Shown here in pieces: positions 2,688 through 40,748 of a DNA stretch of 64,000 nucleotides (position 1 is its first letter; the number at the start of each line of letters is the position of its first letter). The translations under genes and the position numbers were made by a program. The notes under the pieces are model-generated. The model was not told the DNA's origin. It did no database searches and saw nothing but the letters and a program-made list of their open reading frames with translations. The DNA is from Escherichia coli (GTDB taxonomy: Bacteria; Pseudomonadota; Gammaproteobacteria; Enterobacterales; Enterobacteriaceae): NCBI RefSeq assembly GCF_003334355.1, contig NZ_QOWP01000020.1; one strand, 5' to 3'.

Positions 2688-2961
2688 ATTTCCCTCTGGT
2701 CATTGGGTGGACTCTTAAAGGGTAGACGCTGATAAATAACAGGCAAAAAAAAGCCGACTCATCAAAGTCGGCGTCGTACGAATCAATTGTGCTATGCAGT
2801 AATTCAAAAAAGGAAGTAAGACAATATGGAGCGCAACGCCCATCGCTTGACGTTGCATTCACCTGCAAGAGAGATATTGCCCTGAATGGGTAGAGAGTTT
2901 ATTGACTTCGCTCAAACTTTGCGGCGTTTTTGTATACAGACAGCCGGAAAAATTGCTTTTG

Positions 2962-3966
<1,005 letters not shown>

Positions 3967-4199
3967 TTATTTTGTAGTCTAGCCTTCTGGCCCTGTTACG
4001 CAACATCTCATCACCCCATTACCCTGAAATGATTAATAAAATTCTGTCTAAATTGAATACAAAAAGCAAAATGCTTTTCCGTATACAAACCGTGTGAAGT
4101 GTTAAATAGCGTCTATCATTATCAGAATTATCTGATCATATGACGTGGCTTTTTTGCGATCGGATAGCAACAAAAATTGATAAAAATAACGGGATCTCA

Positions 4200-19930: not shown

Positions 19931-20113
19931 ATGAAAAATGTACTGATTCTTGGTGCTGGCGGTCAGATAGCCCGCCATGTGATTAATCAACTGGCAGATA
20001 AGCAAACCATTAAACAAACTTTATTTGCCCGTCAGCCAGCAAAAATCCACAAACCCTATCCAACTAATAAAATGCAAACAACTTCCGGCAAAAAAGTGAT
20101 ACAAGATCGATGA
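19931..20113 (+). pseudogene. ymjC: remnant of an NAD(P)-binding oxidoreductase (ymjC-like fragment)
   Basis: 60-aa ORF MKNVLILGAGGQIARHV... is only the Rossmann N-terminus of an NmrA/SDR-like protein and is then truncated. Confidence 0.55.
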
Positions 20114-26676: not shown

Positions 26677-26831
26677 TGCTGTCCTGTGCTGCTCTGAAGA
26701 CCAGAAAAAAAATCATTCGTAAGGATATGAATGTGGGGGCCAGGCCATTGATTATCAACTGCCCGTGTTGTCATCGACCGGCGAACTCCATAAGATGTGC
26801 AGCATTCACGTTCGGACGGAGTTCCTGACCT

Positions 26832-27830
26832 ATGTCCCCTACTATTTATGATATTGCCAGGGTTGCAGGCGTATCAAAATCCACCGTATCACGCGTGCTG
26901 AATAAGCAAACTAATATCTCCCCGGAAGCGCGCGAAAAAGTGTTACGGGCCATTGAAGAATTACAGTATCAGCCAAACAAGCTGGCCCGCGCACTGACCT
27001 CTTCGGGTTTTGATGCCATTATGGTGATTTCTACCCGTTCGACCAAAACTACGGCGGGTAATCCGTTTTTCTCTGAAGTTTTGCATGCCATCACCGCCAA
27101 AGCTGAAGAAGAAGGTTTCGACGTGATATTACAAACGTCGCACAATCCGGCAGAAGATCTGCAAAAATGCGAAAGCAAAATTAAGCAGAAAATGATTAAA
27201 GGCATTATTATGCTCAGTTCGCCAGCGGATGAGTCATTTTTTGCCCAACTCGATAAATATGATATTCCGGTGGTGGTGATTGGCAAAGTTGAAGGTCAAT
27301 ATGCCCATGTTTATTCTGTCGATACCGATAATTTTGGCGACAGCATTGCGTTGACCGATGCATTAATTGAAAGTGGGCATCAAAATATTGCCTGCCTGCA
27401 TGCTCCGCTTGATGTCCATGTTTCGGTTGATCGCGTTAATGGTTATAAGCAGAGCCTGGCTGCGCATAATATTGCAGTGCGTGATGAATGGATTGTTGAT
27501 GGCGGTTATACCCATGAAATTGCATTAAAAGCAGCACGGCAATTATTAAGCCAGTCACCGTTGCCTGAGGCGGTGTTTGCCACTGACAGCCTGAAATTAA
27601 TGAGCATTTATCGTGCGGCAGCAGAGAAAAATATTGCTATTCCGCAGCAGTTAGCGGTGGTGGGTTATAGCAATGAAACGCTGTCATTTATTTTAACGCC
27701 TGCACCGGGCGGCATCGATGTTCCGACGCAGGAGTTAGGTCAACAAAGCTGCGAGTTATTATTCAGCTTAATTTCTGGAAAACCGTCACCACAGAATATT
27801 ACCGTTGCCACGCATATGACGCTGAAATAA
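26832..27830 (+). CDS. ycjW: LacI-family transcriptional repressor YcjW
   Basis: 332-aa ORF; N-terminal HTH ([20 protein letters not shown]) plus periplasmic-binding-protein-like sugar domain. Confidence 0.9.
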
Positions 27831-27855
27831 ATACCAGCTACCTTGCCTGAATGCC

Positions 27856-27927
27856 AGATGCGATGCTAGCGCATCTTATCCGGCCTACATTTATAGATCG
27901 GATAAAGTACTCGCGCCGCATCCGGCA
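27856..27927. repeat. REP-like palindromic units (ycjW-ompG spacer)
   Basis: gatgcgatgctagcgcatcttatccggcctac and gcgccgcatccggca are close to the REP consensus. Confidence 0.65.
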
Positions 27928-27940
27928 ATTTAGCCCATTA

Positions 27941-28846
27941 TCAGAACGAGTAATTTACGCCGACACCTGCATAATGGAATTTATCACTGTCGCCTTCGTC
28001 GTGATCCTGCCACTCAAACGCGTATTCCAGCGAAACGGAAAGTCCGTTCTGGAAATCATAACCGTAAAATAAACCTACACGGTTAAAATCATGGCCTTCA
28101 CGTTCAATATCATCCTGCCAGTCCCAGTTACTCCAGCGATCCAGCCCAATGCGCGTATACGGCGTCACCGAGTGGTTGCCGAGCGTCAGCGGCAAATAGG
28201 CGCGAATTTCTTGCGTGGAAAACTCACCGTTATTGCGGCTGTCGTCCATATTGAAGCCGCGCTCGAGATAATAGTTCACTCGCAAGGCAACCGTTTCGTT
28301 GAAGGTATATTGCAGACCTGTTTCCGTTTCGACACGGGTATCAGCGTAACCGGTAGTGTTCAGATCGTTGGCAAATTTATACATCGACAACCAACCGTTG
28401 AAACGTAAATCGTCAGTCAGTTTCACATCCCAGTCTGGCGCGATTTTCCAGCGCTGCATATTCGCCGTGTCTTTACCCGGTTCATCAACGTAGTGATAAC
28501 CATAATTACGGAAACCGCCGGTCAGGCCGAAACTGAAATCATCGTTTTCGAGGAACTGATAATGCACCTCCAGCTCCGGGCGATCAAACCACGTTCCACG
28601 TTTACCCGCGCTATAATCTACCGGCCCTTCCTGATAATAGGCCAGAGCAATTCTCCACGGCCCGTTGGCGGCATTAAAATAGACTGAAGGCTCCGCCAGC
28701 CCATCCATATCTTCGCCATAACCCTCGACGTTTTCTATTTCGTACATCGCGCCGATATTAAAGTGCCAGTCGTTCCTTTCCTCGGCCTGTGCGCAGGCCA
28801 TTCCCGCACACATCACCAGTGCGGTACAGGGTAATAACTTTTTCAT
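27941..28846 (-). CDS. ompG: outer-membrane porin OmpG
   Basis: 301-aa ORF with signal peptide and C-terminal aromatic residue; matches OmpG. Confidence 0.94.
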   Translation of the reverse strand: MKKLLPCTALVMCAGMACAQAEERNDWHFNIGAMYEIENVEGYGEDMDGLAEPSVYFNAANGPWRIALAYYQEGPVDYSAGKRGTWFDRPELEVHYQFLENDDFSFGLTGGFRNYGYHYVDEPGKDTANMQRWKIAPDWDVKLTDDLRFNGWLSMYKFANDLNTTGYADTRVETETGLQYTFNETVALRVNYYLERGFNMDDSRNNGEFSTQEIRAYLPLTLGNHSVTPYTRIGLDRWSNWDWQDDIEREGHDFNRVGLFYGYDFQNGLSVSLEYAFEWQDHDEGDSDKFHYAGVGVNYSF

Positions 28847-28890
28847 TATTGTTCCTTGTATTATCCTGGGGGAATGTCTTCCCCCTGTAT

Positions 28891-29973
28891 TTAGCGAATT
28901 GCTATTTCCGTTTCTGCATCAAAGAAATGACATTTCGTCATATCAAAATGAATAGTGATATTTTCTCCTGCATGATAATCATTTAACGCACCAGCACGGA
29001 CCACTAACTCGTGCCCCCCAACCGTGGTGTAGAGCATAAATTCCGCACCGGTTAATTCTGCCACGCTAATTTTGGCGGAAATGTTATTTTCCTCTTGCGC
29101 GTCCGGATGAATATCTTCCGGTCGTATTCCCATCACGATGGGCTTATGCAAACTTTCCTGTGTTTTCAGAACCGCTAATTTCTCTTCGGGAATGGTTAAT
29201 TTAAGCGTTTCCGTAACGAATTTATCGCCATCGATCGTGCCGCGAATAAAATTCATCGCTGGTGATCCAATAAATCCGGAAACAAACATATTCGCGGGTT
29301 GGTTATAAACGGTTTTCGGCGCACCTACTTGCTGAACAATCCCGTCTTTCATAATCACAATCCGCGTCGCCATGGTCATCGCTTCGGTCTGATCGTGGGT
29401 CACGTAGATCATGGTGGTGTTCAGTTTCTGATGCAGCTTGCTGATCTCTGCGCGCATTTGCACGCGCAGCTTGGCATCAAGGTTAGAGAGCGGTTCATCC
29501 ATTAAAAACACGCCCGCTTCGCGTACAATCGCCCGCCCAAGCGCCACTCGCTGACGTTGCCCGCCGGAAAGCGCCCCCGGCTTACGTTTCAGGTACTCAC
29601 GCAGGCCGAGAATTTGCGCCGCCCAGTTCACCCGCTCATCAATCACCTCTTTGGCGATTTTTTGCATCTTCAGACCAAACGCCATGTTGTCGTAAACCGT
29701 CATATGCGGATACAACGCGTAGTTCTGGAACACCATCGCTATATTGCGTGCTTTGGCTGGAACGTCATTCATTCGTTTGCCGTCGATCAACAGATCGCCG
29801 CCGCTGATCTCCTCAAGCCCGGCAATCATGCGCAGGGTGGTCGACTTACCGCAGCCCGACGGGCCGACAAACACGATGAACTCTTTATCGGCAATTTCCA
29901 GGTTGAAGTCCTTCACCACATGCACCTGGTTATCGTAGATTTTTTGAATATGTTGTAACGAAAGCTGAGCCAT
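28891..29973 (-). CDS. ycjV: ABC transporter ATP-binding protein YcjV (MalK-like), intact
   Basis: 360-aa ORF with Walker A GPSGCGKST, signature LSGGQRQR, Walker B and a MalK-type C-terminal domain. Confidence 0.9.
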   Translation of the reverse strand: MAQLSLQHIQKIYDNQVHVVKDFNLEIADKEFIVFVGPSGCGKSTTLRMIAGLEEISGGDLLIDGKRMNDVPAKARNIAMVFQNYALYPHMTVYDNMAFGLKMQKIAKEVIDERVNWAAQILGLREYLKRKPGALSGGQRQRVALGRAIVREAGVFLMDEPLSNLDAKLRVQMRAEISKLHQKLNTTMIYVTHDQTEAMTMATRIVIMKDGIVQQVGAPKTVYNQPANMFVSGFIGSPAMNFIRGTIDGDKFVTETLKLTIPEEKLAVLKTQESLHKPIVMGIRPEDIHPDAQEENNISAKISVAELTGAEFMLYTTVGGHELVVRAGALNDYHAGENITIHFDMTKCHFFDAETEIAIR

Positions 29974-29986
29974 GTTGATTCCTTTG

Positions 29987-30646
29987 CTATACGTTTTGCC
30001 AGAAGGCCGATAACCGCGGCCAGGTGAGTGATTCCGTTGAAGGCAACAGTAATTGCGCCCCGGTTAAGCCCGCGCCGATCCCCACCGAGCGCATACCGCT
30101 GGCGTTAATGGCGTCAATGCCCGCCTGCGCATCTTCAATGCCGATACATGCCTGCGGCGGCACGCCCAGCCCTGCACAGGCGGCGAGAAAGATTTCCGGG
30201 TCCGGTTTCGAGTTTTTAAGTTGGGAAGCATCCGCGCAGAAGGTGAAAAACTCGCGCAGCTCCAGCGCCGCTAAAATCGTCGGCGCATTCAGGGAGACAG
30301 AAGCCAGCCCAACCGAGATCTGCTGTGCACGGAGATCTGCCAGCAAAGAGCGAATGCCGGGTAGAACAGCGTTGACCGTCAACTCGCGTAGTGAGTGGAC
30401 ATAGAGCAGATTTTTGCGATACGCCAGTTGCGCCCTCTCCTGCGAGTTAAAGTCGCCCTCTTTGCCCCCGTGTTGCAGAATGCGCCGCAGAGACTCATCG
30501 CGGCTGATCCCTTTTAGGGATTCGTTAAACTGCGCATCAATGCTGATGCCAATTTCAGCGGCAATCTGCTGCCACGCCTGGAAATGCAGATGCGCGGTAT
30601 CGGTGATTACACCATCCAGATCGAAAATTACCCCTTGCAGTTTCAT
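29987..30646 (-). CDS. ycjU: beta-phosphoglucomutase YcjU
   Basis: 219-aa HAD-superfamily ORF with DLDGV motif. Confidence 0.92.
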
Positions 30647-32910
30647 TCATCCTCCTGATGTTTGGTAGCGGTCCCATTGAAGGGCAAAATAAAATCACCC
30701 AAACAGAAAACAGATTCTTCAGCCACGGTTATAAGCTGACCGTTCAAACGCAGTGAAACGGGCGCAGAAGTTCGAATCGCAATACGCTGCGCGTCAAGAG
30801 TGACCTGTAATTCGCAGCCCTGCCAGAACAGAGGGAAAGACAACTGTTGCCACTGCTCAGGTAACGCCGGATTGAGATGCAATTCACCGTCACGCACGCT
30901 CACCCCGGCAAAACCCTGAATCGCCCCCAGCCAGATAGCGCCAGTTGCGGCAGCATGGATACCATCATCACAACTATGCGGATCAGCACCAAGATCGATT
31001 TCAGTCCCCTCGCGCCAGAACTGATAACTTTGGGTCAGCAGGCCACAGCGTGCGGCAACAATGCCGTGGATTGCTTTACTTAATGACGAGTCGTGAATAG
31101 TGCGCGGTTCATAAAATTGCAGATTGGCAAGACACGATGCCGCTGAGAACTGCTCCGGCAGCATGTAATTGAGCATCACCACATCAGCTTGTTTGAGGAT
31201 CTGCATCTCGTTCACTTCTGCGCGTGAATAATCCAGCAGTATGGTTTGCTTCCCCGCCGCCGCTTTGTATTTCGCCAGATTAATCGCCGGCTTAGCCATA
31301 AACGAATCATCCTGCGGCAAAACGCCGTCGGGCTGAATTTCTGGCATCCATAGCTCTTTGAGGAACATTTCGGCGCGATGGATAAACGCATCGTCGCTAC
31401 AGCCGAACTGGCGGGCAATATTCAGCGCCTGTTGAACGTTGTAGCGGGCCATATAGCTGGTGTATGCATTATTATTGACATGTTCGGTATATTCGTCTGG
31501 CCCAATAACATCATGAATTTCCAGACGATCGTTAACTCTTACCGCGCGGCTAATCCAGAACTTTGCCGTCTCCAGAAGTAGCGCCATGCCTTCATGCGCA
31601 ATGAAACTTTCATCCCCCGTGGTCTGCCAGTATTGAATAACCGCCCAGGCGATATCGGCCACCAGATGATGTTCCGCCTGCGCCGAGGCCACTTTTTGCC
31701 GCAGCCCGGTGCGAATGTTAATGGCGGCAAATTCCGGCGTCTCTTCTTCGCCGCTGCGCGCGCTTTCCCACGGAAATAGCGCGCCCTGCCAGCCGTTGCG
31801 TCGCGCTTTCTCCTGCGCGCCTGGCAAGTTGTGCCAGCGATAACGCAGTAAACTTCGGGCAACCGTCGGATCGCTAAACAGATGAAACGGTAACAAAAAT
31901 ACTTCTGTATCCCAGAAAACGTGGCCTTTGTAGCCTTCGCCGGTTAAGCCTTTTGCCGCAATGCTGCTGCGCTCGTCGTGGGCAGGCGTCATGATGCGCA
32001 GATGATAAAGCGCATAATCTAACGCTTGCTGATCGTGCGCTTCGCCGCCATTTACCGTGATACGACGTTTCTGCCACCATTGACGCCAGTTTTCTGTTGA
32101 TGCTGCAAGAAGTTGGTCGTAACTCTGCTGCGCGCACATTTCAAGCTGGCGAAGCGACGCGCTGCCCCACTCGTCTAAAGCAGCTTGCCTGTCATCCCGC
32201 CAGTCGATCCACACCAGTTTTTGCAACGTCATTGTCTCGCCTGCATGAAGCTGCGCACTGGTATGTTGCAGTAAACGGCGCTCTTTGGCGGTATAGCATT
32301 GCTGCACATCACCGCTCACCTTACAGCAACAGCTGATGGCCACATCACTGCGTCCATCCTGGGTGGTGTAGCTCCCCTGCATCAGATGCTGACCAAACAC
32401 CCGCACCTGGGTTTCGTCGAGATGTTGGCGACCGTGATTGGTTTGCGTGGCGTCAATGCCTGTTGAAATCAGCACTGACGCGTCGGCGTCCAGTGGCGTA
32501 ATAGTGATTTCCAGCGCAATGAGCGGCAGTTGGTCTGCCGAAACAAAGCGACGGCTGGCGATGGTGTAACCTGAGCCGTTGCTGGTACGCCAGACAACAT
32601 TGCGGCGTAATTCGCCACTGGCAAAGTCAAGCTCACGCTGCCAGGCTTCGTGGGATAACGAGAAAACCTCACCATTTATGGCAATCTCCATCCCCACGAC
32701 ATCAGGCAGGTTCACCAGTTCGTTGATTTCACCTTTTCCCGCCCGATGATACAGCCCCGCCAGATACATCCCTCGCGTCTGGCGCGTGTAATCTTCTTCA
32801 TGGCTGGCGCGAAGCCCAAGATAGCCGTTCCCCTGCGCCATCAGCGATGCATACTTGTTCAGGGTATGCTGGCTGAAATGGGGTTCTGATAACGTTACTG
32901 GCCTGGTCAT
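30643..32910 (-). CDS. ycjT: kojibiose phosphorylase YcjT (GH65)
   Basis: 755-aa GH65-family ORF; start overlaps the ycjS stop. Confidence 0.9.
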
Positions 32911-33962
32911 AATTCCACACGCGTCCCTGTTTCTGCGGATTGATACAACGCCGCCACCAGTTGCTGGATGATGTACCCCTGCTCGGCGTCGGCTATCATC
33001 ACGGGCTTGCCCTGTACGTGATTGATAAAGGCTTCCATGCTGCGCAAATGGCGGTTGTCGTCTGCCATTTCCCGTTGCATCAGCGTCATTAATTCACCGT
33101 TGTTATCGGTGTAGATATGTGCTGGAAACAGCGTCGCACCAGCTTTATCACCACAAAAGCTGACGTTCATAATCGACTGTTCGCGGATGTTGAGTGCAAA
33201 TGACGTTTCCAGCCACAGAATGCCGCCGTTATGAAATTCAATGGTGCCAAACAGCGAATCTTCGACGCTGTAAGTTGCCGGATCCCACTCACCAAATTGA
33301 CCACAGCTCTTTTGCGTGCCGATCTTTTGAAAGCTATGCGCATTCACGCTTTTCACCGCCGGAAAGCCCAGCACATACATCGCAGCATCCAGCATATGAA
33401 TGCCGATGTCGATCAGCGGGCCACCACCCTGCAGTTCTTTATTGGTAAAGACACCCCAGCCGGGAACGCCGCAGCGACGCAGGGCGCGGGCGGTGGTAAC
33501 GTAAATCTCTCCCAAAACGCCGTTGGTCACCTGTTCACGCAGCTGTTGCGTATCGAGCGCAAAACGATGGTGAAAGTCGTAGGCCAGCACCTTGCCCAGT
33601 TTGCGCGCGGTATCGCACATTTCCCGCGCCTGTTCTGGCGTCATGGCGGGCGGTTTTTCGCACATCACATGGCAGCCCGCTTCCAGTGCCATCAGGGTAT
33701 GTTCGTAATGAAAACGGTTAGGTGAGCAGACGCTAACCACATCAGGTTTCACCGCCAGCAGCATGGCCTGCGGATCGTCCCACACGGATGCATTCCCGTA
33801 TTTTTCTGCCAGCGCCTGCGCCTGGGAAAGGCGGCTGTCACAGACAGCCACCAGTTCCAGATCGTTGCGGGTGCAGTAGTACGAAGCATGAACCTTATCC
33901 GCCACCTGGCCTGCGCCTATTATCGCGACCCGCAGCGGAGAGCTTGTCATTGCACTTTTCAC
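32907..33962 (-). CDS. ycjS: Gfo/Idh/MocA-family NAD-dependent sugar dehydrogenase YcjS
   Basis: 351-aa ORF with Rossmann motif IIGAGQ. Confidence 0.9.
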   Translation of the reverse strand: MKSAMTSSPLRVAIIGAGQVADKVHASYYCTRNDLELVAVCDSRLSQAQALAEKYGNASVWDDPQAMLLAVKPDVVSVCSPNRFHYEHTLMALEAGCHVMCEKPPAMTPEQAREMCDTARKLGKVLAYDFHHRFALDTQQLREQVTNGVLGEIYVTTARALRRCGVPGWGVFTNKELQGGGPLIDIGIHMLDAAMYVLGFPAVKSVNAHSFQKIGTQKSCGQFGEWDPATYSVEDSLFGTIEFHNGGILWLETSFALNIREQSIMNVSFCGDKAGATLFPAHIYTDNNGELMTLMQREMADDNRHLRSMEAFINHVQGKPVMIADAEQGYIIQQLVAALYQSAETGTRVEL

Positions 33963-33971
33963 AAAGACCTC

Positions 33972-34769
33972 TTAGCAGGTACGCAACCAGGCCAACGAAT
34001 CACGGTACGCCTGGGCAGGATCTTCCGCCCGGATACGCCCTTCGTACACTACATAGCCCTGATAGTTATCCGCGCGCAGCTGTTCAAACAGCGCGTGGAA
34101 ATCCAGGGTGCCGCTGCCCGGCTGGTAGCGATGGTTATCCGCAATATGCACATGACCGAGCAGGTCGCGGTTGTCATGCAGCGCCTGCGCCAGGTTATCT
34201 TCTTCGATATTCATGTGATAGAAATCGCCGATAATCTGTACATGTTTAAGATCGTTTTCGACGATGTAACGGCGGGCATCGGCGAGGGTGTTGATCATAT
34301 GATCCTGATAGCGGTTTAACGGTTCGAGATACACCACGGTTCCGGTACGCGCGGCGACCTGTTCCAGTACGCGCAGGGAATCACTCACCATTTTGCGGTC
34401 GCCGTCCAGGCTACGCGGCGAGGTCATCGGCGGTAAGCGGAAGGTAAACATGCCCCACGCAGCCGGAACGACGATGCCTTTACCGCCCACTTCTGCCAGC
34501 GCTTCGAGAATGCGCTCGATCTGCTTTAAGCCATTAAGACGACGCTCTTCGATAAAGTCGCCAATCCATCCGTCATAGCCACCGCAGGCGGTGGTCACCG
34601 GTAAACCGGTTTCTTTGATCGCCGCTTTGACTTCTTCGATGTTGTTAACCAGCAGTTTGCCGTCAATCTCAAAACCATCGAAGTCCATCTCTTTGATATA
34701 ACGAAATTTCTCCAGAATGTTTTCCGGAAAGAACGCCTGATTCTGTGTGCCGATTTTCATTTTTTTCAT
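33972..34769 (-). CDS. ycjR: sugar-phosphate isomerase/epimerase (TIM-barrel) YcjR
   Basis: 265-aa ORF, xylose-isomerase-like TIM-barrel family; the true start may be 3 codons downstream (MKIGTQ...). Confidence 0.88.
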   Translation of the reverse strand: MKKMKIGTQNQAFFPENILEKFRYIKEMDFDGFEIDGKLLVNNIEEVKAAIKETGLPVTTACGGYDGWIGDFIEERRLNGLKQIERILEALAEVGGKGIVVPAAWGMFTFRLPPMTSPRSLDGDRKMVSDSLRVLEQVAARTGTVVYLEPLNRYQDHMINTLADARRYIVENDLKHVQIIGDFYHMNIEEDNLAQALHDNRDLLGHVHIADNHRYQPGSGTLDFHALFEQLRADNYQGYVVYEGRIRAEDPAQAYRDSLAWLRTC

Positions 34770-34778
34770 TCCTTTGAA

Positions 34779-35831
34779 TTAAAACGTAACGCCCATTTTG
34801 ATGCTCTGTTCCGGATGCTGGTCGACATACTGCATATAGCTTTCCGGGCTATTGGCAAAGGTCACCACCGGGTCGATTAAATCTTCGCAATTGAGATAAC
34901 CGTTCATCAGCAGTTCCCAACAGGTTTCTTCAATACGCTTGCGGCTCCAGCGCGGATAATCCGGGTTCGGTTCGCTGCACGCGCGAGAGAAGACAATTTT
35001 GGCGTTATTGAAATGCGCTTCGCGTCCGAGGTTAAAACCTTCGGCAAACGGCTTGGCAAACGCGACATAGGAGATGGTGCCGCCATAAGCCAGACCGCGG
35101 AGCGCCGATTGCAGCGCGTCGGCGTAGCCGCTGGTTTCGATAATCACATCGGCACCCTGCTTGCCGGTCAGCGTTTTGATCTCTTTACCTACATCAGTGC
35201 CGATGGGGTTAAGGCAGAAATCCGCGCCGTGGCGACGGGCAATATCACAGCGATGGGCGATAGGATCGACGCCAATCACCACAGAAGCGCCAGCGCGTTT
35301 AGCCAGTTGGATGGCAATTTGACCGATTGCGCCAAGCCCTACCACCACCACAAAATCCCCTACGCGCACGTTGGCATCGCGCACGCCGCTCATGGCAAAC
35401 TGCGCCGGGTCGTAGCAGACGGCGTTTTTCCAGGAGCTGCCTTGCGGCATTTTGCGCAGCTTGTAGTTATTCACTGCGTTAATGATGACCGTCTCGGAGA
35501 GCGGGCCGTAGCCGCATACGCTGTCGCCCACCGCGTAGTCGGTAACGTCGCTGCCGCACTCGATAATGTCGCCAACCACCATGTTGCCAAGCTGGAATTT
35601 GCCAAACTCAATGCCGCGCGGCGCATCTGCCGGACGCGGAGTGAACATCTGCCATTCGCCGTTAAAGTCTTCATCAATAAACGGGCTGGCGGCGCGGAAG
35701 TCGACCACTTCCGTTCCGTGTTTCGGTGCGCCGAAACGCACGCGGATCTTCACTTCATTAGCTAAAATCGCCCGATCTTCATACTCAACCAGCGCAGCAA
35801 CACGCGGTGCTGTGGCTACTAACTTTTTCAT
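34779..35831 (-). CDS. ycjQ: zinc-dependent alcohol/sugar dehydrogenase YcjQ
   Basis: 350-aa MDR-family ORF with GxGxxG motif (VVGLGAIG). Confidence 0.9.
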   Translation of the reverse strand: MKKLVATAPRVAALVEYEDRAILANEVKIRVRFGAPKHGTEVVDFRAASPFIDEDFNGEWQMFTPRPADAPRGIEFGKFQLGNMVVGDIIECGSDVTDYAVGDSVCGYGPLSETVIINAVNNYKLRKMPQGSSWKNAVCYDPAQFAMSGVRDANVRVGDFVVVVGLGAIGQIAIQLAKRAGASVVIGVDPIAHRCDIARRHGADFCLNPIGTDVGKEIKTLTGKQGADVIIETSGYADALQSALRGLAYGGTISYVAFAKPFAEGFNLGREAHFNNAKIVFSRACSEPNPDYPRWSRKRIEETCWELLMNGYLNCEDLIDPVVTFANSPESYMQYVDQHPEQSIKMGVTF

Positions 35832-35861
35832 TTAAAACTCCTTGTAAAGAAACTGGCCGCT

Positions 35862-36704
35862 TTAGCCCTTCACGCCACCGGCGGTCAAACCACTCTTAAT
35901 AAAACGTTCCGAAAGCGCATACATAATCACCACCGGCAATGCGGTCACCAGTGAGGCCGCCATCATCCGTCCCCAGATGTAATCTGGCGTACTGAACAGC
36001 GCGTTCAGGCCCACCGGTAAGGTGAAATTGCTGGCGCTGGAGAGGAAAATCGACGCAAACAGATAGTCGTTCCACGCCACCATAAAGCAGTAGACGAACA
36101 CGGATATCAGCCCGGACATCGCCAACGGCACGGTGATGCGGAAGATAATTTGCAGACGGTTGAGGCCATCCATCATCGCCGCTTCTTCGATCTCATCGGG
36201 GATGGTGTCGAAGTAGCTTTTCAGCATAAACACGGCGGTGGGCAGAGTTTGCGTCACCATGGTGATGATCAGCGCCATCTCAGTGTCGTAAATGCCAAGC
36301 GCGGTGATGATTTTGAAAAGCGGCACCACCAGCAAAATGCCAGAGAACATATACACCGTGTAAAAGCTGGCGTTGATGGTCATCCGACCTTTAAAGCGCA
36401 GGCGGGAAAGCGCGTAAGCCCCAAGAATGCCGAGGAATACCGCCACCACGGATGAAACCACAGACACCACCAGACTGTTACGGAAGTAGTCGACAAACGG
36501 GAAAATCATCGGGTTAAAAATGTCGACGTAATGCTCCAGCGTCCACTGCTGCGGCAGCAGCGTAGGATGCAGTGAGATCGCCTCTTTCGCGCCCTTGAAC
36601 GAGGTCATCAGCATCACAAAAAATGGAAACAGCGTGATGATGAGAAACAGCGCCAGCCCGCAGTAAAAACCGATGCGACTGAGTGTGCGTTTATTTGTTG
36701 CCAT
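35862..36704 (-). CDS. ycjP: ABC sugar transporter permease YcjP
   Basis: 280-aa ORF; MalG-like permease. Confidence 0.9.
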   Translation of the reverse strand: MATNKRTLSRIGFYCGLALFLIITLFPFFVMLMTSFKGAKEAISLHPTLLPQQWTLEHYVDIFNPMIFPFVDYFRNSLVVSVVSSVVAVFLGILGAYALSRLRFKGRMTINASFYTVYMFSGILLVVPLFKIITALGIYDTEMALIITMVTQTLPTAVFMLKSYFDTIPDEIEEAAMMDGLNRLQIIFRITVPLAMSGLISVFVYCFMVAWNDYLFASIFLSSASNFTLPVGLNALFSTPDYIWGRMMAASLVTALPVVIMYALSERFIKSGLTAGGVKG

Positions 36705-37572
36705 TGAGGTTCACCCGTTTCCTGGTCAGCAGAATGACAGCGAAAATAATGATGAAGAGCACCACCGAGATCGCCGCCGCTTTTCCTAAATCATTAAAGG
36801 CAAAGGCGGTTTTGTAGAGATATACACCGAGAATATCGACCTTGGTCGTCAGCAAATAAACATCCGCGAACATGTAGAACATCCAGATGGTGCGCAGTGT
36901 CACCACCGTCGCCAGGACCGGCATAATTGCGGGCAGCGTGACGATACGAAACCGTTGCCAGGCATTAGCGCCATCCATCTCTGCCGCTTCGTACAGCGAT
37001 TTGTCGATGGTCTGCAAAATCGCCAGAAACGAGATAAAGGCATACGGGAAGTAGCGCCAGATGGCGAACAGCACCACCAGCACAAAGCTACTGCCCGGAT
37101 TATCGAACCACAGCGGTGCCTGCTCATAGAGATGCAGAAGATCGACGCCGAGGTAGTTAACAATGCCGTAGCCGTTGTTGAACATGTATTTCCAGGCGAA
37201 CACCAGCGAAATGGACGGCGTTACGTAGGAGAGGATCACCAGCGAACGCGCGGTTTTGCGCAGGCGGAACTCGCGGTTGAAAAACATCGCCACCGCCAGC
37301 CCGAGCACGGTGCTGCCCGCCACCACCAGCGCGGTATACCAGACCGTCATCCACAGCGAATGCCAGAAGCCGGGATCGGAGAGGATACGCACATAGTTGC
37401 TCACCCCAACAAACGTTGACTCGATGTTGGGATTGAGCGGCAGACGTAAAAAACTGATTTCGATATTCGACACCATCGGCCACGCCACCAGACCGCCCAG
37501 CAGTAATAAGCTGGGCGCGAGAAGCAGCAGCGCAAAGGGCATATCGGAACGACCTGAAAAAAGTCTGTTCAT
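36691..37572 (-). CDS. ycjO: ABC sugar transporter permease YcjO
   Basis: 293-aa ORF; MalF-like permease. Confidence 0.9.
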   Translation of the reverse strand: MNRLFSGRSDMPFALLLLAPSLLLLGGLVAWPMVSNIEISFLRLPLNPNIESTFVGVSNYVRILSDPGFWHSLWMTVWYTALVVAGSTVLGLAVAMFFNREFRLRKTARSLVILSYVTPSISLVFAWKYMFNNGYGIVNYLGVDLLHLYEQAPLWFDNPGSSFVLVVLFAIWRYFPYAFISFLAILQTIDKSLYEAAEMDGANAWQRFRIVTLPAIMPVLATVVTLRTIWMFYMFADVYLLTTKVDILGVYLYKTAFAFNDLGKAAAISVVLFIIIFAVILLTRKRVNLNGNK

Positions 37573-37592
37573 TGCGGATTCCTGTCCTGGGT

Positions 37593-38885
37593 TTAGTGCT
37601 GTTCGATCAGTTCATCCAGTTTTTTCTGGCTCGCTTGCAGCGTAGTAGAGAGATCGGCTTTACCCACGGTGACGTTATGCACCATTGAACTCACCACGCC
37701 AGAACCCGTCACATCACCCATGCGGGTAAAGTTTTTATCCCCTACTGCGCCAAAAACCTGAATATTTGGCAGTTCACCGATTAGCTGATTCGGTAGTTCA
37801 CCCAGCGCCTTAATAACGTCGTTGTCTTTCCAGGTGGCGGTAGTCACCACCGCTTTATTCACCGGCAGCGCAGCACCTGGCGACATCATCACCCAGTCGG
37901 CAATGTTGTCTGCCTGCTCCATAAAGGTGACAAATTTTTCTGCTGCTTCCGTCTCTTCGGTCTTTTGCCCGGCGGTAATGGTCAGCGAGGTCAACATGCC
38001 GTAGACCGCAGAGTTTTTCTCGGTTGGCACCACGAAACCGACGTTTTTCGGGTCGCCTTCTTTAATCACAGCCGGAAGGATATAGGTGGAGTAAATCGCC
38101 ATCGGCGCGGTGCCGTTCATAAAGGCGTCTTTCACTTCCATGATGTCGTTAGAACCCGGCATAGTGTTGGCAGCAAGGTCGCGGTAATAGGTCAGTGCCT
38201 GCATCATCTCTGGTGTATCAAGGGTGATTTTGCCTTCGGCGTTAAAGACGTTAGCCTGGTTGGATAACGCAAACTGGGAGAAGGATTGTTCCGTCAACAC
38301 GCTTTCTGCTGTAGGCAGCGCAATGCCGTATTTTTTATTCGCCGGGTCATTCAGTTTCTGTGCAACGTCCAGCAGCTGTTGCCAGTTTTTCGGCTCCTCA
38401 AGCCCCGCTTTTGCCAGCACATCTTTGCGATACCAGATACCGCCAATCCAGGCGCTGACAGGAACACCGGTCCATGCGCTACCATCTTCGGTACGCACAA
38501 TACGCAGTACGCCATCGTAAAACGCGCCTTCACCAACGTTGCTGATGACTGTGGCAACCGCTTTGCGATCGATAAGCTGCTCTTTGTCCATCACTTTGGC
38601 GTAGTCATGGCTGGTTTCGATCACTTCCGGCAGCGAACCGCTACGTGAAAGAGTAATGACTTTAGTGTTATAGGCATCTTCTTCCACGGGCACTTGCTTA
38701 ACGGTGATGCCAGGGTTTTCTTTTTCAAAACGGGCAATCAATTTACTGATAACGGCCTGGCGCTCCTGCTCCACCGAAGAATGCATAAATTCGATGGATA
38801 CATTCGTTTTATTTTCTTCTTTACAGCCTGAAATCAGGGCGCATGAAACCAGTGCTGATAACAGCACGATTTTTGATTTAATCAT
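37593..38885 (-). CDS. ycjN: periplasmic sugar-binding protein YcjN
   Basis: 430-aa ORF with signal peptide / lipobox-like N-terminus; SBP family 1. Confidence 0.9.
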   Translation of the reverse strand: MIKSKIVLLSALVSCALISGCKEENKTNVSIEFMHSSVEQERQAVISKLIARFEKENPGITVKQVPVEEDAYNTKVITLSRSGSLPEVIETSHDYAKVMDKEQLIDRKAVATVISNVGEGAFYDGVLRIVRTEDGSAWTGVPVSAWIGGIWYRKDVLAKAGLEEPKNWQQLLDVAQKLNDPANKKYGIALPTAESVLTEQSFSQFALSNQANVFNAEGKITLDTPEMMQALTYYRDLAANTMPGSNDIMEVKDAFMNGTAPMAIYSTYILPAVIKEGDPKNVGFVVPTEKNSAVYGMLTSLTITAGQKTEETEAAEKFVTFMEQADNIADWVMMSPGAALPVNKAVVTTATWKDNDVIKALGELPNQLIGELPNIQVFGAVGDKNFTRMGDVTGSGVVSSMVHNVTVGKADLSTTLQASQKKLDELIEQH

Positions 38886-38898
38886 GAGATGTTCCTTT

Positions 38899-40578
38899 TT
38901 ATTTAATCCACATAACCTGCCAGGGGCGCAGCGTTATTTCATTACCCAATATATCAACTTCACTAATCAGATCCCGACCATGCAGATTAGTAATATTTAC
39001 ATGCTGAATATTTTTACTGACATTAAACAATCCAGTCAGACAATTACCATCAGCGTTACTTCTTTGAATACGCATTACGGATGAATTAATCGTATCAATG
39101 GTAAAATTATTATCCGGATGAAACTCGTTATGGCTGCGACGAAGTGTAATTAAACGCGACAACTCATGATATACCGCATGCCTTAATGTAGCTTCATCGT
39201 TCAGTTCTCGGGTTATCTCTTTACTGTGATATTTTTTACGGTTAATCGCACGGTTATATCCGAGTTTTTCGACACCTGCGTAATCATTACGCGAGCCAAG
39301 AATACTTTGAATATATATCGCTGGCACACCGGGGAAACTTAACAAAATCGCATGGGCAAGGATAAACCTGGCGCAACGTTCTTCATCGCTACTCTCACGG
39401 CGGCTTAACGCATCCATATAGGTCACATTTATTTCATACGGACTGCGTGTACCGTCGGGATTATTTTTCCAGTTTACTAATGCACCTTCCTGCTGTAACG
39501 CCTCGACCAGCTCTAATATTTCGCTTTCAGGCAACAAGCCCCGTAGCGGGTTTAGCCCGATGCCATCGTGAGAGGCGAGGAAGTTAAACCAGGTGGTGTT
39601 GCTGGAAGGTAGTGTCAGGTTTTGCGCCCACGCACAAAGCGCCTCAACGTTCTGTTTTTGCACCGCATGCAGCACCAGTGGCGGCAGCGAGAACTGGTAC
39701 ACCATATGTGCTTCGTCATCGCCTGCGCCAAAGTAAGCAATGTTGTCTTTATGCGGAACATTGGTCTCGGTAATGATCACTGTACCTGGCGCAACGTTAT
39801 CAATAATCGACCGTAACAGTTTGATAATCAGATGTGTTTTTTCCAGATGGATGCAGCTTGTTCCCGGCTCTTTCCACATAAAGCCAACGGCATCCAGGCG
39901 GACATACTCAGCACCTTTCGCAAAGTAACAGAGTAAAACATCCACCATCGCCAGCAACACTTCAGGGCTACGGTAATTCAGGTCAATTTGATCGTCACTA
40001 AAGGTGGTCCATAAATGGCGCGTTGAATGATCGCGCATCTGGAATGGCGTTAATAACGGTAACGCACGCGGGCGAGTGACGGCGCTGAGATCGGTTTGCG
40101 GGTCAACGGCAATAAAAAAATCTTCAAAACCTGGATGCTGTTGTAAATAGTTTTTAAACCATTCACTTTTTGCCGACATATGGTTGCAGACAAAATCAAA
40201 CATTAAATGACTGCATTCACCGAGTTGCTGAATATCCTGCCACTCCCCCGCTTCACTGGCGACCTGATGATAATCAATTACCGAAAAGCCATCATCAGAT
40301 GACCATGGATAAAACGGCAACAAATGAACATGTGAAAAAATGCTTTGCAGCCATTGATGGTAAAACTGATTAAATGTGGGTAATGGTTTTAAATCATTGC
40401 TGTGAAATTGATCGGCATAGGTAATTAACACGACATCACTTTCATCCCAGTGTTTTTTACGTCGCTGTGTAATTAATCGTTTCGCACTCTCAAGACGCGT
40501 TACAAGTTTCTGTAAATGAGTTGCGGTAAATGTTCCACCGTAGATTTCGTCCAGGTAATCCGTAATTTTCTGTTTCAT
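38899..40578 (-). CDS. ycjM: glucosylglycerate phosphorylase YcjM (GH13_18)
   Basis: ORF 38899..40605; likely start at 40578 (MKQKITDYLDEIYG...), 559 aa; sucrose-phosphorylase-like GH13. Confidence 0.9.
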   Translation of the reverse strand: MKQKITDYLDEIYGGTFTATHLQKLVTRLESAKRLITQRRKKHWDESDVVLITYADQFHSNDLKPLPTFNQFYHQWLQSIFSHVHLLPFYPWSSDDGFSVIDYHQVASEAGEWQDIQQLGECSHLMFDFVCNHMSAKSEWFKNYLQQHPGFEDFFIAVDPQTDLSAVTRPRALPLLTPFQMRDHSTRHLWTTFSDDQIDLNYRSPEVLLAMVDVLLCYFAKGAEYVRLDAVGFMWKEPGTSCIHLEKTHLIIKLLRSIIDNVAPGTVIITETNVPHKDNIAYFGAGDDEAHMVYQFSLPPLVLHAVQKQNVEALCAWAQNLTLPSSNTTWFNFLASHDGIGLNPLRGLLPESEILELVEALQQEGALVNWKNNPDGTRSPYEINVTYMDALSRRESSDEERCARFILAHAILLSFPGVPAIYIQSILGSRNDYAGVEKLGYNRAINRKKYHSKEITRELNDEATLRHAVYHELSRLITLRRSHNEFHPDNNFTIDTINSSVMRIQRSNADGNCLTGLFNVSKNIQHVNITNLHGRDLISEVDILGNEITLRPWQVMWIK

Positions 40579-40748
40579 GTTGCCTTTCCGTGGTAGCGGT
40601 CCCATGAAACGAGAGACTACTCCGCAGAAAATAAACTGTCAATTGAGCACAAGGGTTTTAGTCACGCAGGAAATCATTTTTTACCAGGGAAAAAGCGTAT
40701 TTGTGAGCTGACGCAAATAATCTATGGGGATGTAAATAAGGTGTGACA

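Follow-up and report, generated by a model that had tools for sequence, protein, structure and literature searches.

Does the ycjV gene of a wild Escherichia coli strain encode a working transport ATPase, or is it a relic like the disrupted gene of the K-12 reference annotation? The question is raised by a stretch of 64,000 nucleotides from an E. coli genome (contig NZ_QOWP01000020.1), referred to here as the window. An earlier note, made from its letters alone, had described ycjV in the window as a gene for a complete 360-residue MalK-like ATPase, had stated that K-12 annotates the gene as disrupted and had proposed that this strain may retain a functional ATPase. As set out below, the ycjV gene of the window is very probably an ordinary wild-type allele encoding the ATP-binding subunit of the sugar ABC importer made up of YcjN and YcjO-YcjP. 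The features of the locus are compiled in Table 1.

Table 1. Features of the ycj locus in the window (positions are those of the window; NBD, nucleotide-binding domain).
Feature	Position	Strand	Remarks
ycjW	26832..27830	plus	LacI-family repressor of ycjMNOPQRSTUV-ompG, divergently oriented
ompG	27941..28846	minus	outer-membrane porin, last gene of the operon, 44 nt downstream of ycjV
ycjV CDS	28891..29973	minus	360 aa plus stop, ATG start; equals RefSeq WP_000057985.1
C-terminal regulatory domain of YcjV	28921..29268	minus	Pfam OB_MalK, residues 236-288 (E 6.5e-14), and TOBE_2, residues 282-351 (E 9.8e-10)
ycjV codons 321-360	28894..29013	minus	40 C-terminal residues, end of TOBE_2, lost in K-12
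G6 homopolymer (C6 on the plus strand)	29014..29019	minus	gene nt 955-960, Gly319-Gly320; G5 in K-12
NBD core of YcjV	29488..29913	minus	Pfam ABC_tran, residues 21-162 (E 2.6e-31); contains Walker A, Q-loop, LSGGQ and Walker B
AGGA Shine-Dalgarno of ycjV	29980..29983	minus	6 nt before the ATG; CAAAACGTATAGCAAAGGAATCAAC directly followed by ATG
ycjQ, ycjR, ycjS, ycjT, ycjU	29987..35831	minus	intact enzyme genes of the operon; ycjT, kojibiose phosphorylase; ycjU, beta-phosphoglucomutase
ycjP	35862..36704	minus	permease, intact; presumed partner of YcjV
ycjO	36691..37572	minus	permease, intact; presumed partner of YcjV
ycjN	37593..38885	minus	binding lipoprotein, intact; presumed partner of YcjV
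ycjM	38899..40578	minus	glucosylglycerate phosphorylase, first gene of the operon

Reading frame and domain architecture of YcjV

The DNA of ycjV in the window does not differ from that of the gene annotated as WP_000057985.1 in strain PSS-12. The gene is separated from ycjU by a spacer of 13 nt, in which the AGGA Shine-Dalgarno sequence is located. A scan for promoters and terminators around ycjV returned three promoter-like sites where 3.1 were expected. Within the 44 nt that separate the ycjV stop from the ompG start, we noticed an inverted repeat rich in G+C (GGGGGAATGTCTTCCCCC, 28868-28885). It is not followed by a T-run on the operon strand and might form an mRNA hairpin between the two cistrons.

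The encoded protein contains all canonical motifs of an ABC nucleotide-binding subunit in canonical order. Walker A (GPSGCGKS, residues 37-44), the Q-loop (Q83), the signature LSGGQ (135-139) and Walker B (VFLMDEP, 155-161) are followed by the D-loop (SNLD, 163-166) and the H-loop histidine (H193), the last two lying just downstream of the ABC_tran core. Together with the open reading frame and the C-terminal regulatory domain, these motifs bear out the description of a complete 360-aa MalK-like ATPase. The domain and structure matches of YcjV score far beyond chance.

YcjV is MalK-like in its fold and not a MalK orthologue. With 482.9 bits against a cut-off of 432 it passes the NCBIfam model NF008653 of the UgpC subfamily, residues 1-356 aligning with positions 1-352 of the 357 in the model, and with 429.1 against 568 bits it stays below the cut-off of the MalK equivalog NF008233. 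Its best solved relative is MsmX from Bacillus subtilis (PDB 6yir), with which it shares the architecture of an NBD and a regulatory domain and with which residues 1-360 align end to end (E 1.2e-148). MalK structures (1q12, 2r6g) align over residues 1-353, AlgS structures over nearly the full length and SugC structures over residues 1-318. An OB_MalK and a TOBE domain behind the NBD, a curated cut-off that is passed and structural relatives of full length identify YcjV as a CUT1-type importer ATPase. The gene context agrees with this assignment, as two permeases and a binding protein are intact in the same operon (35862-38885). The position between ycjU (pgmB) and ompG and a difference of one indel and zero substitutions from K-12 establish the gene as the ycjV orthologue.

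There are clear differences from the known relatives as well. MsmX is encoded by an orphan gene and serves several importers, whereas ycjV shares its operon with a single, dedicated pair of permeases, and YcjV lacks the charged residues that have been proposed as the multitask signature of MsmX (PMC7658222). MalK and UgpC of E. coli have the CUT1-type architecture and the motifs in common with YcjV; in contrast to them, ycjV is located at another locus and accompanied by other partner genes.

A single-base difference from K-12

In K-12 MG1655 (NC_000913.3) the interval is annotated as two pseudogenes, ycjV (b1318, 1380821..1381789) and ymjB (b4524, 1381789..1381902), which confirms the statement of the earlier note that the gene is listed as disrupted. 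In K-12 derivatives it is labelled 'frameshifted' by PGAP. Global alignment against NC_000913.3 gave a length of 1083 bp in the window and of 1082 bp in K-12, the run of six G, reduced to five in K-12, being the only difference across the gene. K-12 is therefore not identical and intact over this interval, as the alternative to the earlier note would have had it, but short of one G. The b1318/b4524 pair occupies the same place between ycjU and ompG as in the window and is identical at all aligned bases of its 1082 nt.

Without this G, the frame is left at codon 321 and the last 40 residues of the regulatory domain are lost, and thus K-12 ycjV and ymjB are listed as pseudogenes. The K-12 frame reads G319 G320 T S stop and yields a 322-aa product followed by an out-of-frame remnant, whereas the window encodes a single 360-aa protein. 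Presumably, the truncated K-12 product is without function. The alignment of residues 321-360 of YcjV with residues 326-365 of MsmX, in which the HFFD-ETE motif is conserved, shows that the ancestral frame is that of G6. The surroundings of the gene are closely related in both strains. Between positions 14793-48794 of the window and 1362000-1396000 of K-12, the identity is 99.747% with 85 substitutions over 34 kb, and the missing G is the only gap.

One assembly designated 'K-12 MG1655' (NZ_CP010440.1, ycjV at 3001-4081 of the extracted locus) lacks a further base in a different G-run of the gene (nt 396-400), which reduces ycjV to 1081 bp. This second deletion is probably an assembly error, showing that homopolymer indels in ycjV can be artefacts.

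Intact and broken alleles among E. coli genomes

The gene is present in 5002 of 5426 complete E. coli genomes. To distinguish the two forms, exact matches were counted to an 80-mer probe centred on the G-run and to the corresponding 79-mer of the K-12 G5 form. When intactness was checked in this way against other E. coli genomes, as the earlier note had suggested, the G6 80-mer was found in at least 3918 of 4996 complete ycjV-carrying genomes and the G5 79-mer in 369. The remaining genomes, roughly 700, have a SNP near the G-run; the sampled rows span 80 bases without a gap, so these genomes can be counted as G6. We thus estimate that about 92% of the ycjV carriers possess G6. The exact YcjV protein sequence occurs on at least 1000 contigs. 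An intact ycjV is the species norm, and the lesion in K-12 is a documented defect of a laboratory lineage that was already known.

Judged by strain name, genome size or coordinates, nearly all of the 60 listed G5 genomes are K-12 derivatives, among them MG1655, C600, J53, DH5alpha, DH1, NCM3722, NEB strains and evolved MG1655 lines. The ycjV gene of WG1, which we take to be an early K-12 stock, is also 1082 bp long. The reading that G5 is strictly K-12-specific was rejected in view of two clear non-K-12 carriers among the 60. These are 2014C-3051 (NZ_CP027338.1, 5.6 Mb), with 21 substitutions from K-12, and 08-00022 (NZ_CP013662.1, 5.2 Mb), with five. In both extracted loci (L007 and L008, respectively) ycjV spans positions 589-1670 and is annotated 'frameshifted'. 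G5 in these two genomes reflects either recurrent slippage or a long-read homopolymer error.

A further candidate was BHUCD02 (NZ_CM183444.1), which combines MG1655-like size and coordinates with G6 and might have been a K-12 revertant. It was discarded, as its ycjV differs at 22 positions from both the window and K-12 and its neighbouring genes carry other alleles.

Other ways of losing ycjV were encountered in the same collection. In the food isolate CFIAFB20180511 (NZ_CM143727.1, 2616730-2618589) the gene is split by IS1A and otherwise 100% identical to that of the window. Further disruptions are represented by annotations of an N-terminally truncated 'TOBE domain-containing protein'. Six ycjV/ycjW matches lie on records classed as plasmids. 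They may represent wrongly assigned contigs of the chromosome, or plasmids that carry large pieces of a chromosome.

The ycj operon and its strain background

Genes of the locus were assigned from the annotation of PSS-12, the best-matching genome, and from K-12 product names. The twelve genes (ycjM to ycjV, ompG and ycjW) are intact open reading frames as long as those of K-12, from which their products differ by 0-2 amino acids. Since ycjN, ycjO and ycjP are intact, a binding protein and both permeases are available to YcjV. Over 24.9 kb, the closest match to the window, with 11 mismatches, is PSS-12, a strain obtained in Ecuador from human faeces; E. coli C and its relatives come next. In both PSS-12 and E. 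coli C, ycjV is annotated as intact.

The entire 13.8-kb cluster from ycjW to ycjM (26800-40600) was recovered at a coverage of at least 80% in 4943 of 5426 complete genomes. No match was obtained in 375 and a partial one in about 108 more, so that the cluster is absent or partial in approximately 9%. The ycj locus is near-core, with losses that occurred repeatedly or within certain lineages. Mukherjee et al. 2018 is the primary publication on this cluster.

Outside the operon, at about 19931-20068 of the window (2932-3069 of the extracted locus L004), we noticed a short 'NAD-dependent dehydratase' remnant, for which the annotations of both PSS-12 and E. coli C give an incomplete pseudogene. 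The remnant is flanked by ycjY and mpaA, in the interval that holds the small open reading frames ymjC and ymjD in the K-12 annotation, and appears to be an old gene fragment carried by these strains.

Activity of YcjV and a model of the importer

E. coli YcjV has been purified under the accession WP_000057985.1 and found to be ATPase-active by Leisico et al. 2020 (PMC7658222). There is no sequence difference between that protein and the YcjV of the window, and the proposal that this strain may retain a functional ATPase is thus in line with published biochemistry. The same study reported that YcjV is 64% identical to B. subtilis MsmX and that it could not replace MsmX in B. subtilis (PMC7658222). 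In the literature on YcjV and YcjN, we found no report of YcjV coupled to YcjNOP.

Regulation of the operon has been described in some detail. YcjW represses ycjMNOPQRSTUV-ompG, and kojibiose frees it from DNA in vitro (Luhachack et al. 2019, PMC6599011). Without YcjW the operon is strongly induced (PMC6599011). [quoted passage not shown] In thermal shift tests YcjN did not respond to kojibiose, to maltose or to any further sugar in the set, and no ligand was found (PMC11543891, JBC 2024). The papers on YcjN, the one from JBC 2024 and one from 2025, name YcjV as the ATPase of the transporter and leave the K-12 frameshift unmentioned.

A working model of the importer can be drawn from the genes of the locus. 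The substrate would cross the outer membrane through OmpG and would then be handed over by the lipoprotein YcjN. If YcjV behaves like MalK and MsmX, two copies of it would dock on the coupling helices of YcjO and YcjP. The YcjV dimer would close on two ATP molecules, with Walker A, Walker B and the H-loop of one subunit facing LSGGQ of the other, while the C-terminal OB/TOBE domains would hold the dimer together. Hydrolysis of ATP would finally power transport of the YcjN-delivered substrate through the inner membrane. The model builds on established knowledge of MalFGK2 and MsmX and is consistent with the structure alignments. The pairing of YcjV with YcjNOP is our inference, and the substrate assigned to a YcjNOP-V importer is likewise a presumed one.

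Alternative explanations

The most serious alternative to a wild-type importer subunit holds that ycjV is intact but idle. The operon would then be cryptic, MalK or UgpC could serve YcjOP, and the frameshift in K-12 would be neutral and without phenotype. We regard this as unlikely, although several observations speak for it. Gram-positive homologues, MsmX among them, work with several transporters (PMC7658222), and the YcjNOP transporter has no known growth substrate. In addition, the cluster is absent or partial in some 9% of the complete genomes, and there are independent disruptions of ycjV by IS1 and, on other backgrounds, by slippage in the G-run. Cluster loss and independent disruptions, including IS1 and G5 on two non-K-12 backgrounds, indicate that selection on ycjV is not absolute. 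On the other hand, about nine in ten carriers have kept the full-length frame, in lineages at 95-100% nucleotide identity. In the ycjV allele of 2014C-3051, the one divergent allele that was compared base by base, 19 of the 21 substitutions fall on third codon positions. Moreover, the operon responds to loss of YcjW with strong induction (PMC6599011), and so is under regulation and not dead. Conservation of the frame across lineages and strong inducibility weaken the notion of an idle gene.

Alternatively, the G6 tract might be a phase-variable contingency switch, with slippage alternately enabling and disabling the transporter. One might take the occurrence of the one-G deletion on three haplotypes, namely K-12, 2014C-3051 (21 SNPs) and 08-00022 (5 SNPs), as a hint in this direction. 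However, a tract of six G is short for high-rate slippage, two clear carriers beyond the K-12 laboratory derivatives are few among 60 listed G5 genomes, and both of them could be long-read homopolymer errors. G7 alleles were not seen in the sampled rows of the genome matches. A switch of this kind is very improbable.

Finally, the extra G as a homopolymer error of sequencing or assembly in a strain that is really frameshifted like K-12 can be dismissed as virtually impossible: such indels are a common error class and one 'MG1655' assembly has an additional 1-bp deletion in another ycjV G-run, but thousands of genomes with G6 rule out an error in the window. The identical 80-mer occurs in at least 3918 independent complete genomes, the G6 frame gives a C-terminus that aligns with MsmX to the last residue, and the window, with its 85 substitutions in 34 kb, is not K-12, while PSS-12 and E. 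coli C are annotated as intact.

Consequences for studies of the ycj pathway

As an intact ycjV is common and the defect in K-12 is on record, the finding is correct but ordinary. The intact allele is already present in RefSeq as a common protein and has been studied biochemically, and the annotation of the reference genome records the frameshift of K-12. The K-12 'pseudogene ycjV' routinely serves as a neutral integration site, and resequencing tables carry the entry 'ycjV pseudogene'. Among the papers covered here that name ycjV, none discusses a phenotype of the frameshift, and the mentions are 'pseudogene' labels.

A word of caution is nevertheless in place, as the studies on ycj considered here used K-12 or K-12 sequences, for instance in the tests of MG1655 for growth on kojibiose and in the ligand screen of YcjN. 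The failure to obtain growth or a ligand in work on the ycj pathway may be due to the frameshift in K-12. With more doubt than confidence, we suggest that K-12 is a natural YcjNOP-V null by virtue of the single-G deletion, which would account for the lack of growth on kojibiose even under derepression and for the elusive substrate. If so, strains with the intact allele would import the substrate of the pathway and grow on it, and a K-12 strain with the single G put back would show what it is. The right background for finding the substrate would be a wild-type strain like that of the window or a G-restored K-12.

Substitutions in the repressor YcjW

Compared with K-12, E. coli C and PSS-12, YcjW of the window contains the substitutions T230I (27520) and R312S (27765). 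Polarised on these three genomes, five SNPs in 24.9 kb are private to the window, and two of them are the nonsynonymous changes in ycjW. The best match to the 306-bp segment of ycjW with both SNPs among 5021 complete genomes was 99.3% (two mismatches), and hence neither T230I nor R312S was seen elsewhere on this background. Position 312 differs between lineages, being R, Q or S. At position 230, Thr is found in all three of the other alleles examined, and the aligned residue of CcpA and 5ysz is Gly. A YcjW S258N mutant derepresses the operon (PMC6599011). T230I and R312S could change repression in the strain of the window.
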